Positions 50,801 to 59,283 of a DNA stretch of 64,000 bases are shown in pieces; the stretch's first letter is position 1, and each line of letters opens with the position of its first letter. A program made the position numbers and the translations under genes. Location: contig CM120640.1 in the NCBI GenBank assembly GCA_051362555.1, forward strand, positions 21,948,001-22,012,000, in the 5' to 3' direction. Below the pieces are notes generated by a model, which saw only the letters and a list, made by a program, of their open reading frames with translations, did no database searches and was not told where the DNA came from. The DNA comes from Lingula anatina (Eukaryota; Animalia; Brachiopoda).

Positions 50801-52274
50801 CATAAGAAGTGAAACCACAGACAGCCTTGTTTTTATGTATATATATATATATCATATACATAACTTTCATAGAAAATAATATCACAAAATATTATATGAT
50901 GATTGCATAAGAATATTAATTTATAGTAAATTTGACCTGTGGCTTTGTGTGTATATTTCAGCTGTCTGATAACTTGTCAGATATCCTTGGAGATGATGTT
51001 TCCTTGAATCTCTCTGAGATGTTAGATGGAGTCCCAAGCTTGTCCAGGTAGGTTTTGTCATATCAATCAGGCATGGAACTTGATATATTGAGAAATAGAG
51101 GTGTAAGTTAAATGTAAGTCATGCATTTGTAGATATAAGGCAAAATTTTAAAGACTTTAATATTACGGCATGTTCATTTTGTCTTCTATAATGTAAATGC
51201 ATTGTGTATAATTTTTAATTTTTACAAGGCGATACATGTACAAAAAGAGGAAAGGCATAATCAAGTGAGATATGTTTGCTTAGTTTTTCTTTTTTATCAA
51301 AATATACATCTTGGTGTTTTGATTGTGTTCAGGGTTGCTCTTAAATCTGGCTGAATTAAGTTCATTTTATGGATGCAATTTTATACAGTGTATGCATTTC
51401 ATACATGAAGTTAAAATTGCTTTGCTTGCACTTTATGTATTTGTTATTGTAGCAATACTTTTTTCTTTTCTGGCTTTACTTTTTTCTAAATATCACTTTC
51501 TTTATAAACCATTCAATGTTGATCAAAGACATTTTTACTATTAAAATTGCATTGTTTCACGAAAAAAGTTTTGGACAACACAAGAAAACAATACCATCTA
51601 CAAGTGAGCATGTGCATTTGCAAAAGAGGTACCTCATATTTGATCATTTTTGTGCAGTGTATTTCACCCTGTCCTCAGTCATTTAAGTGGTTAGTAAACA
51701 AACTCTTCTTTATGACAGAGCAGGGACAGCTAACACCCAAAGTGGGTCTGGTAGTACAGGTTCCAGACCCGGTAGTGCAGTGTCCAGACCTGGCAGTGGA
51801 GGGTCCAGACCCAGTGCAGCATCCAGACCTGGCAGTGGAGGGTCCAGACCCAGTGCAGCATCCAGGCCTGGCAGTGGAGGGTCCAGACCCAGTGCAGCAT
51901 CCAGACCTGGCAGTGCAGCGTCCAGGCCTGGCAGTGGAGGGTCCAGATCCAGCAGTGGGGTAACAGTAGGTGGGAGACCAGAGTTGGAAAGACAAGGCAG
52001 GCAAGGAGGCAGACCATCATCAGCCCAATCCAGACCAATGTCTCCCTTGGCCAGGCCAACATCAGCCCAATCAAGGCCGATATCTCCACTAGCAAGACCA
52101 CCTTCAGACCAGTCTAAACCAGTATCTCCTTTAGCTGGGCCATCACCCCCACAGCCTGCTGAACATACGCAGCCAGTTCCCAGTGAGTCAACAAGTCCCA
52201 CAGCAGAACAGCCAACTGACACCAGTGCAAAGTCTACGGAGAAAGACAGTCAAACTGCTCCTGACAGCAAATAA
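47820..52274 (+). CDS. Uncharacterised multi-pass membrane protein (about 9-10 hydrophobic segments) with Ser/Pro/Arg repeat C-terminal tail, 7 coding exons
   Basis: Phase-consistent exons 47820-49179, 49399-49584, 49800-49946, 50134-50238, 50510-50703, 50962-51047, 51719-52274. Many hydrophobic helices. Motifs YVQIFALLQ..WVWP and WRPYRVSAFN loosely resemble TRP-like/FLC transmembrane domains (inference only). Confidence 0.8.
51762..51956 (+). repeat. Coding minisatellite encoding (SRPGSGGSRPSAA)n
   Basis: 39-bp unit CCAGACCTGGCAGTGGAGGGTCCAGACCCAGTGCAGCAT, about 3 full copies plus partial 21-bp units. Confidence 0.9.
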
Positions 52275-56392: not shown

Positions 56393-59283
56393 TCAGCACT
56401 GGCAATTGCTAGCCTGCTGGTTTGGTGTTTCTGTAAGTCTGGTGCCTCCTCTTTGGTTGCTGACAATTGTGGGGTCTGAATCCAGACTCTCAGACATTTT
56501 CTCGCAGATGATGTCTACTAGGCGCTCAAAGACTGCCTTCACATTTATGTTCTCCTTGGCAGATGTTTCAAAGAACTCCAGACCTAGAGGAAACAGAAGA
56601 AAAGTGTATCTTTATTGGAAATGATCATTCTTTCCAACCCAAAATGCTATGTAAAAACCAATGCTATGTAACAGCAAATCATGTTTATTCTCATAAAATT
56701 TAGGCTATCGGAACAATTTCTTTGATGGCACAAAGAATGATTTTACATCAAGAGCCTACATCGATATAGCTATAATGAATGTGAGATAGTTGTGTGAAAT
56801 CGTTGAGACAGCAGTCCAACAAATTACATTAGTATTGACAAAGCAGACAAACATTCTCAAATGACAGCAGATGAGCATATTTGAAGGATTTAACATGGGC
56901 TGAGGTTCAATAAATTGTAGCAGCACAGCAGGAGTAGAAAAACCATTGTTACAACAAAGGGAAATATCACAAGAAAAATTGGAGTTTGATTGAACATTGC
57001 AGCTGTTAGGTAGTCATTTACATAATACCATTTAGATGGAACAGGCAGCCATTCTTTCCTAGGGATATGTATACAACATGCAAAAACATAAAGGAACAGT
57101 GTAGGGAATGAACAACACTGTGACTGTCAGTTAGGCAGCATCTCCAGTAACTGAAAATAAACTAGGTTATCATACACCACAACAGAATGGTTTGGGTTAG
57201 TAATAAAACAAGAAAGAACACTTACCATACAGTACATACAACCAGTTAGTCCAAGCAGGGGTTCATAACAGTCACTTAAGTACGTTCATACTTATGTGCA
57301 AACTAAGTCTAAAGCAGTGCGGTGCATACATGCTAAGCCAGGCTACAGAGAACTATGTAAAAGGAATACCATACACCTAAGTCCACTGGGATTATTACAT
57401 TTCTAAGTAAAAAGGCAACATTTCTACACAGGCCCAGTGTAAGATATTTGTTTCCAAAGCACCCTAAAGTAGTGTAATAATGGAAACTTTAAATGTGGTT
57501 ATCAAGGGAGATGTTGCCTTTCTTGTTGGTCATACACAACATAGTCCATTAAACTGTTACAATATATATCATCAGCACTGAACAGTCAAACCTGTCTGAA
57601 TCGATTTAAATAACATCAACCTAAATGTCATGAGATTCTACCCAAAATAATTTGTTTACATAAATTGTGTGCTCTCAAAAAGGTTCAACAAGTGAAAAGT
57701 TACACCTCAAAAATTCAGACATTGTAACAGTTTAATGCATTGTCTGCATCCCATTGTTCCTGACCACTTTGGGATCCCAGTCACCTACCCAGCTGGTCAG
57801 CCAGCTGTTTGCCTCTCTCAGTGGACACTACCCTCTCATCCTCCAGGTCACATTTGTTGCCCACTAAGACCACCTGTGCATTATCCCAGGAATAGGTCTT
57901 GATTTGTGTCACCCTAGATTGAAGAGAGTTAAGATGTGAAACTAAAACAAAATCACACGCACGCCACACATGTGGGAGGAAAAGACCCTTGAAAATGCAC
58001 CACACCAGCACACACTACATTGTCTGTATGCACTAACCACCTGTCTAGAGCCATACCTAGGCGGTGTGCGAGCTGCATTCCTCGCTCAGTTGTGACCACA
58101 CGCTCCTCCTCTAGGTCGCTCTTATTGCCCACTAGGACAACTTGTGCGTTATCCCAAGAGTACATCTTTATTTGTGTGCACCTGGAATGAATAGTTGACA
58201 GCATATGCAGGAAGTTGGGTGCGTCATGACACTACGTCTATCAACCAAACCCAGAAGTGCAGGGGCAAGAGGAACAAAAATACATTTAGTTGCGCATAGG
58301 CAGCTATAGACTTAACTTGTTGACTTCCAATAATAAAAGGCAATAACATGAATTATATTTAAATCCACTTCCTGAATACACTTTGTGATATTCAATCTGT
58401 TTCCTTGCGAGAAAACCAATTTGGCTGTCAAGTAGTCTATGTGATTTATTGATGTGATTTTATTCCTCCCACTGCTGCTCACTGCTTCAAGTGCACTACT
58501 AACTCCACTACAGCATGCCGTGTGCTGCAGCTAGCAGGCTTGCAGAAGCCAGACTAACTATATGGGTAGAGTGGTGTGTTCATTCCTACCTAACTGGTCG
58601 GCAAGTTTTTGACCATGTTTTGTTGTGACATTGCGTTGGTCCTCAAGGTCACATTTGTTGCCAACCAAAATTACTGAAGTGTTAGGCCAGGCATGTGTTT
58701 TAATCTGTGTACACCTGTGTGTCCAACAAAGAAAGACATAATGAAACCAAGAACACAAAATCAAACTAACATAATGGGAATATTAAAGATGTAACACCTT
58801 GATAAAGTAAAGCTGTTAAAGTGTTTACTAACATAAATGATGTAAATGTACAAATTTCTCTTCAGAAAATGATGAAACAAGTAAAGCAATTGAAAAGCCA
58901 CTGCAAAAGAAATAATTATATATAATACTGCAATACTAGTAAATTTGTAAAACTTTGGTGCCACACAATTAACTTCATTTAAATCACTCTTTTATTATCA
59001 AAAGTCAAATTTACTTAAATTTATTATTAAGAAGACTTCCTTTATCAAAATTCTGTTACGACATAATTCAAAAATTCATATCCACTTTGTCAACATTAGT
59101 ATTACTAATATAATTAATTTTAAATACTGATAATTCATATCATAACTGCCATAGTCTATCTTACCAGTCTTGCACAGCATTAAAAGACTCCTCATTGGTG
59201 ACATCATACATGAGGATGAAGCCCATAGCACCTCTGTAGTATGCTGTGGTGATTGTCCTGTATCTCTCCTGGCCTGCTGTGTC
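56393..59283 (-). CDS. RAB3: Ras-related protein Rab-3, 3' coding part. First coding exon not found in the window, presumably beyond 64000.
   Basis: Exon 59283-59165 encodes [40 protein letters not shown]. One 125-nt alternative exon follows. Last exon 56583-56393 encodes [38 protein letters not shown]...SNCQC*, ending in a CXC prenylation motif. Confidence 0.95.
57789..57913 (-). CDS. RAB3: Rab3 alternative exon C (125 nt, canonical type)
   Basis: atctag|G GTG ACA CAA...CAG CTG G|gtaggt. Encodes [41 protein letters not shown]. Confidence 0.92.
58057..58181 (-). CDS. RAB3: Rab3 alternative exon B (125 nt)
   Basis: ttccag|G TGC ACA CAA...CGC CTA G|gtatgg. Encodes [41 protein letters not shown]. 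Confidence 0.88.
58590..58714 (-). CDS. RAB3: Rab3 alternative exon A (125 nt)
   Basis: acacag|G TGT ACA CAG...CAG TTA G|gtagga. Encodes [41 protein letters not shown]. Confidence 0.85.

Follow-up and report, generated by a model that had tools for sequence, protein, structure and literature searches.

Tandem exons in the Rab3 gene of Lingula anatina and a candidate docking-site switch in its introns

The window, by which we mean the whole 64,000-nt stretch of Lingula anatina DNA that was analysed (GCA_051362555.1, contig CM120640.1, positions 21,948,001 to 22,012,000), carries on its minus strand the Rab3 gene that hosts the candidate RNA switch described here. The exons concerned, in window positions and transcript order, are:

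59283-59165, minus strand: constitutive upstream exon U of Rab3 (DTAGQERY...AVQDW), from translation and from RNA depth and joints
58714-58590, minus strand: variable exon A, 125 nt, THAW type, from translation and identity to isoform X2
58181-58057, minus strand: variable exon B, 125 nt, MYSW type, from translation and from 7 U-B and 16 B-D junction reads
57913-57789, minus strand: variable exon C, 125 nt, canonical TYSW type and the major form, from 46 U-C and 29 C-D junction reads
56583-56393, minus strand: coding part of the last exon, D, from translation and RNA joints

Once translated, exon A matches Lingula anatina Rab-3 isoform X2 at 100% identity, exon C is carried by isoforms X1 and X4, and solved Rab3 structures are the top structural matches. 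The introns measure 450 nt (U-A), 408 nt (A-B), 143 nt (B-C) and 1205 nt (C-D). Exons A, B and C are tandem homologs of equal length with AG/GT intact, and 74–91 of their 125 nt are identical. By translation, a full protein results when any one of the three is included alone, and an early stop results from every double or triple inclusion, as well as from skipping all three. The variable exons span the alpha3-beta5 loop of Rab3 including its WDN motif, and exon A has THAWPN in place of TYSWDN. In PMC4552854, the WDN of this loop is described in fly Rab3 as the second complementarity-determining region (CDR), and fly Rab3 with a mutated alpha3-beta5 loop shows no impairment at the neuromuscular junction. 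Elsewhere in the window, 51687-52271 on the plus strand holds an open frame with tandem SRPGS/SRPSA repeats, matched by a long open frame on the minus strand.

Splicing was followed in four of nine RNA runs, with 6–25% of each run's reads, and a joint was counted only if it had at least 3 reads. All 98 junction reads given above come from these four runs and show single inclusion of B (23 reads) or C (75 reads), and no joint for exon A, B-C or U-D was among those with at least 3 reads. Each of B and C was spliced in as the one and only variable exon; exon A, unobserved in the RNA, is annotated as isoform X2. The use of B differs between samples: it accounts for 0 of 39 junction reads in study P5 and for 21 of 53 in run X18, and at the D acceptor for 0/11 vs 16/31 (p 0.003). 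Many fixed differences separate run X18 from the window, and this between-study difference may have a cause in trans or in cis. RNA coverage within introns is too low for interpretation. Run X12 has an RNA depth of about 5 over 57957-58077, in the B-C intron, without B joints, which suggests that this intron is slowly removed or retained in precursors. Loose read ends at 59221 and 59256 resemble other Rab genes, as judged from their translation. We conclude that the three-exon Rab3 cluster is real, and it is a firmer result than the switch considered below.

Related exon types occur well beyond Lingula. Annotated proteins from Patella, Batillaria, Nucella and Tubulanus contain exons of the THAW type; alternatives of the MYSW type occur in Haliotis and Lineus. 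Bdelloid rotifer models (P0042-P0053) have two tandem exons, a MYSW exon and then a THSW/THCW exon with a very short intron between them, in the order opposite to that of Lingula. Two doubled proteins with near-identical repeats (P0156 and P0157) were excluded as alternative exons. A search of metagenome contigs for the A-type pattern returned a single distant locus of the THAW type, in which an A-type exon is followed by 2.3 kb of downstream intron with no other variable exon and no counterpart of the dock intron; this intron has no similarity to the Lingula A-B intron (162/300 and 90/100 shuffles as good). The B/C-type exon pattern had 0 matches in the genome contigs and viral contigs searched. 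In a weak tree of 33 selected rows of 41 residues, the THxW exons fall on one side of a branch (support only 80/76) and the MYSW exons are ungrouped. On these sequence comparisons an old A-type alternative is likely, and the three-exon cluster as a whole is probably old.

The initial annotation had proposed that a segment of the C-D intron serves as a docking site for which selectors behind exons A and B compete. On re-checking, the quoted sequences and coordinates of all pairings are correct, and the arrangement, with the dock behind the last variant and the selectors behind the upstream variants, matches the geometry of insect clusters with a downstream dock (PMC6071210). The elements are:

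58497-58478, minus strand: claimed A selector, core 58490-58480, with chance-level energy; takes the dock in silico if B is blocked
58478-58255, minus strand: predicted stem in the A-B intron, 58472-58458 with 58279-58265, 15 bp, from its probability in folds
58319-58303, minus strand: second A-B intron element, complementary to dock positions 57311-57299, 13 bp, -19.5 kcal/mol extended, from folds
58035-57994, minus strand: selector region behind exon B, core 58006-57995, UG-rich, from complementarity and shuffle tests
57737-57547, minus strand: 17-bp perfect inverted repeat in the C-D intron, 57737-57721 with 57563-57547, predicted at a probability of 0.93-0.97
57330-57296, minus strand: candidate docking site in the C-D intron, 459 nt 3' of exon C, from complementarity and folds, with no listed substitution in runs X2 and X5

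The pairing behind exon B had been given as about 14 bp, and we recover it as 12 bp between 58006-57995 and 57327-57316 plus 2 bp after a bulge, with a predicted energy of -22.3 kcal/mol for the core and -32.6 kcal/mol when extended over 58035-57994. It is the best contiguous helix between the B-C and C-D introns, equalled by 24/400 dinucleotide shuffles, and a contiguous helix as good was found in 3/400 natural segments of the window. The helix has a probability of 0.94 in a nascent fragment (equalled by 2/37 shuffles) and of 0.93-0.95 over seven C-D intron lengths with exon C held open (equalled by 5/98 shuffles). Several test designs were tried, so the values near 5% are optimistic. In a loop-permissive scan, which allowed bulges and small loops and used approximate, self-devised loop energies, the best B site was beaten by 444/585 shuffles, and the dock site ranks second. 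Comparison of the pairing energies with shuffled introns, which the initial annotation had put forward as one test of its model, is mixed: B lies at about 5% in three tests, but it is at chance in the loop-permissive scan, and A is at chance by energy.

The fold results vary with the fragment ends and with whether exon pairing is allowed, and keeping the exons unpaired is an assumption of our analysis. When the exons are free to pair, the B helix has a probability of 0.00-0.67 over six folds and of 0.29 in the 2.6-kb fold. A 7-nt stretch of exon B (58101-58095, minus strand) matches the dock and takes it at 0.67 with exons free. The complementarity of a further 9-bp B helix (58033-58025 with 57330-57322) exists as described, at -12.7 kcal/mol, but its probability is 0.00 in every fold. 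It is also true that the G-U wobbles are available only on the transcribed strand (antisense energies -11.4 and -16.3), but this carries no evidential weight because any G-U-permitting search of this strand yields it. Taken as a prediction, the B helix is borderline above chance, and we would give its being functional an even chance.

The 11-bp A pairing was likewise found where it had been placed, between 58490-58480 and 57319-57309, at -14.2 kcal/mol, or -19.6 kcal/mol with the GUGCA extension. It is only fourth among the contiguous helices between the A-B and C-D introns, the best of which was matched by 332/400 shuffles and 274/400 natural segments, and in the loop-permissive scan the best A site, a different one from that claimed, was beaten by 47/585 shuffles. 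A joint A and B score at one site was reached by 25/400 shuffles for contiguous helices and by 140/585 in the loop-permissive scan, there at a different place. Among shuffled A-B introns, 0/12 and 7/53 (7/65 together) paired with the dock region equally well. The probability of the A helix is 0.000 in the 2.6-kb fold and 0.00-0.21 over six folds with exons free. As had been argued, the A and B helices exclude each other, in silico, by overlapping at 57319-57316 (57319-57314 with the bulged pair). In the fold with exons unpaired, B is favoured by 4.1 kcal/mol and forms at 0.96; once the B selector is blocked A forms at 0.64, and when A is forced B falls to 0.04.

The second A-B element (58319-58307) pairs with the 3' half of the dock as strongly as the claimed A selector does, and therefore such dock partners arise easily; this element is compatible with the B helix and so is no competitor. 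We regard the A helix as unproven; its predicted energy does not distinguish it from chance.

The most stable predicted features of these introns are the two local stems of 15 bp and 17 bp. The stem in the A-B intron has an energy of -25.3 kcal/mol with extension and adjoins the A selector on its 3' side; its probability lies at 0.85-0.99 except where the second A element is forced, and at 0.66-1.0 in other folds. A pyrimidine tract located 75-100 nt before the acceptor of exon B falls within this predicted stem. The part of the C-D intron that holds the 17-bp repeat is otherwise polymorphic, and the repeat might be either a bridging stem or the relic of a transposon. If formed as modelled, the two stems would shorten the loops between the selectors and the dock.

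Other arrangements were considered and set aside. A dock upstream of the cluster fares poorly, as runs X2 and X5 carry substitutions at 58993 and 59002 that disrupt a 20-bp helix between the U-A and A-B introns, and the best helix between the U-A and B-C introns reaches only -14.4 kcal/mol. Steric exclusion was rejected with A-B and B-C introns of 408 and 143 nt and a branch-point-like motif at 57932, near the C acceptor. An unconstrained suboptimal duplex search was uninformative.

Variation within the species was drawn from four DNA runs, with differences fully listed for two long contigs of run X2 and for the dock contig of run X5, 3/5 listed for the X5 selector contig, and a minority listed for run X10. 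Run X2 has 9 and 8 differences in its two contigs, none of them in the dock or either selector, and the 12 differences of the X5 dock contig also leave the dock intact, while two comparison helices of similar energy, described below, do carry variants. This lack of polymorphism is not significant (0/21 sites in 97/1858 nt, p 0.32; p 0.12 with the helper stems). The listed conspecific differences are few in 57745-58880 (3 substitutions) and 56584-57437 relative to the flanks 57438-57744 and 58881-59164, and these low-difference blocks may reflect either selection or haplotype structure. Run X11, from another organism, aligns to the window at exons only.

The dock segment could also matter in a different way: it lies inside a possible 117-nt cassette exon (57342-57226, minus strand) that contains a stop, and the B pairing might act by masking that exon instead of selecting B. 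Such an exon would have a pyrimidine-rich AG before 57342 and a GTAAGT donor after 57226, and its reading frame, continued from exon C, reaches a stop at codon 24 (...VLK). Against this, no junction read falls at either site, RNA depth there is at most 0.5, and conspecific indels lie inside the segment at 57228 and 57273-57281, so that we think it very improbable.

A more serious alternative is that the long-range helices are chance, with splice-site strength and RNA-binding proteins setting the choice and nonsense-mediated decay removing double inclusions. Two helices of similar energy between other intron pairs, at -24 to -25 kcal/mol (-23.9 and -25.1), are broken by natural variants, one by two substitutions and the other by a 6-nt deletion. 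The B-C intron is 64% G+T with 12.6 TG per 100 nt, a composition that favours wobble pairing and protein binding alike, and GCATG occurs at 58518, 57333 and 57081. We take CELF- or Rbfox-type factors to be candidate binders of the UG-rich B-C intron and of the nearby GCAUG motifs. The early stops in all double and triple inclusions fit the same account and could alone remove double inclusion, and the between-study difference in B use is not explained by a fixed helix alone, but it is equally compatible with a helix gated by protein. A chance origin also sits less well with the B helix lying at about 5% in three of four tests with dinucleotide content preserved, and with the in-silico hand-over from B to A at the same site. 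We judge it a substantial possibility, a little short of an even one.

The reading that we favour, and that the modelling leaves finely balanced between right and wrong, is that the B selector pairs with the dock through the 12-bp helix, so that C would be looped out and B chosen, and that the dock may also be contested by the A selector once the B selector is covered. The proposal of a dock and selectors choosing among A, B and C is borne out so far as B and C are spliced singly and the hand-over occurs in silico, but the energy of the A helix is at chance level, and the bare model would have B dominate, whereas most of the junction reads belong to C. Because of that prediction, early commitment or protein cover is needed. 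C would be the default, being nearest to the dock and having a cleaner acceptor; it would win if the splicing choice is committed before the dock is transcribed, and also if a protein covers the UG-rich B selector. Double inclusions, being frameshifted, would likely be removed by nonsense-mediated decay. The A step is weakly supported and accounts for about half of the weight of this explanation. The full three-way model of the initial annotation, counted within our favoured reading, is doubtful, and we regard as similarly unlikely its elaboration, in which a three-way dock switch, helped by the two intronic stems and gated by a factor specific to certain tissues, would select one of three old exon types.

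The nearest known system is the Drosophila 14-3-3zeta exon 5 cluster with its elements IE1, IE2 and IEa, as described in PMC4174434, PMC4691838 and PMC6071210. Both loci have three tandem homologous exons, with selectors behind the first two and one dock behind the last, and in both pairing loops out the downstream variants, which for Rab3 is a prediction. According to PMC4174434, the 14-3-3zeta elements show high conservation and represent copies of a single duplicated arm, whereas the Lingula selectors are predicted only, overlap on the dock by 4-6 nt and have no detectable homology, local alignment of the A-B and B-C introns being equalled by 70/300 and 253/300 shuffles. Likeness of the selector introns, the duplicated-arm feature of the model in PMC6071210, which is not strictly defining, is thus absent from Lingula Rab3; an old duplication could have had such likeness erased. 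The same paper reports competing structures for 4/11 Drosophila genes that have at least three such exons. On the modelling, a switch of the 14-3-3zeta type is plausible but unproven.

Long-range intronic pairing also biases the choice of tandem exons in the Mhc clusters, Dscam exons 4 and 9, srp, where pairing is bidirectional, and human ATE1, and auxiliary stems may shape the architecture in these genes (PMC6071210, PMC4691838 and PMC11802352). Those cases have experimental support and come from arthropods or mammals, in contrast to the prediction made here in a brachiopod. The docking-site mechanism itself is not new: both arthropods and mammals offer cases backed by experiment. Convergent cases are reportedly surveyed by Yue et al. 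2017. Among small GTPases, RAB6A/A' is another with tandem-exon substitution. In RAB37 a duplicated internal exon swaps a Rab surface patch, as in Lingula Rab3 (PMC8373072); Lingula Rab3 is unlike both in having three copies and in placing them at the alpha3-beta5 loop. Among the literature results examined, none dealt with Rab3 mutually exclusive exons, although the supplements of splicing surveys could list the cluster, and none described a switch of the docking-site kind for any brachiopod, mollusc or annelid.

The exon cluster alters the alpha3-beta5 loop of Rab3, and the competing switch is a reasonable and cheaply testable hypothesis rather than a result, for which a 2.6-kb minigene suffices. 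If true, it would extend the docking mechanism to lophotrochozoans, with three exon types rewriting the loop that sets effector specificity in the main synaptic-vesicle Rab. Should the pairing be kept in molluscs and nemerteans, which have the same exon types, the switch would exist outside arthropods and vertebrates and would be of early lophotrochozoan age.
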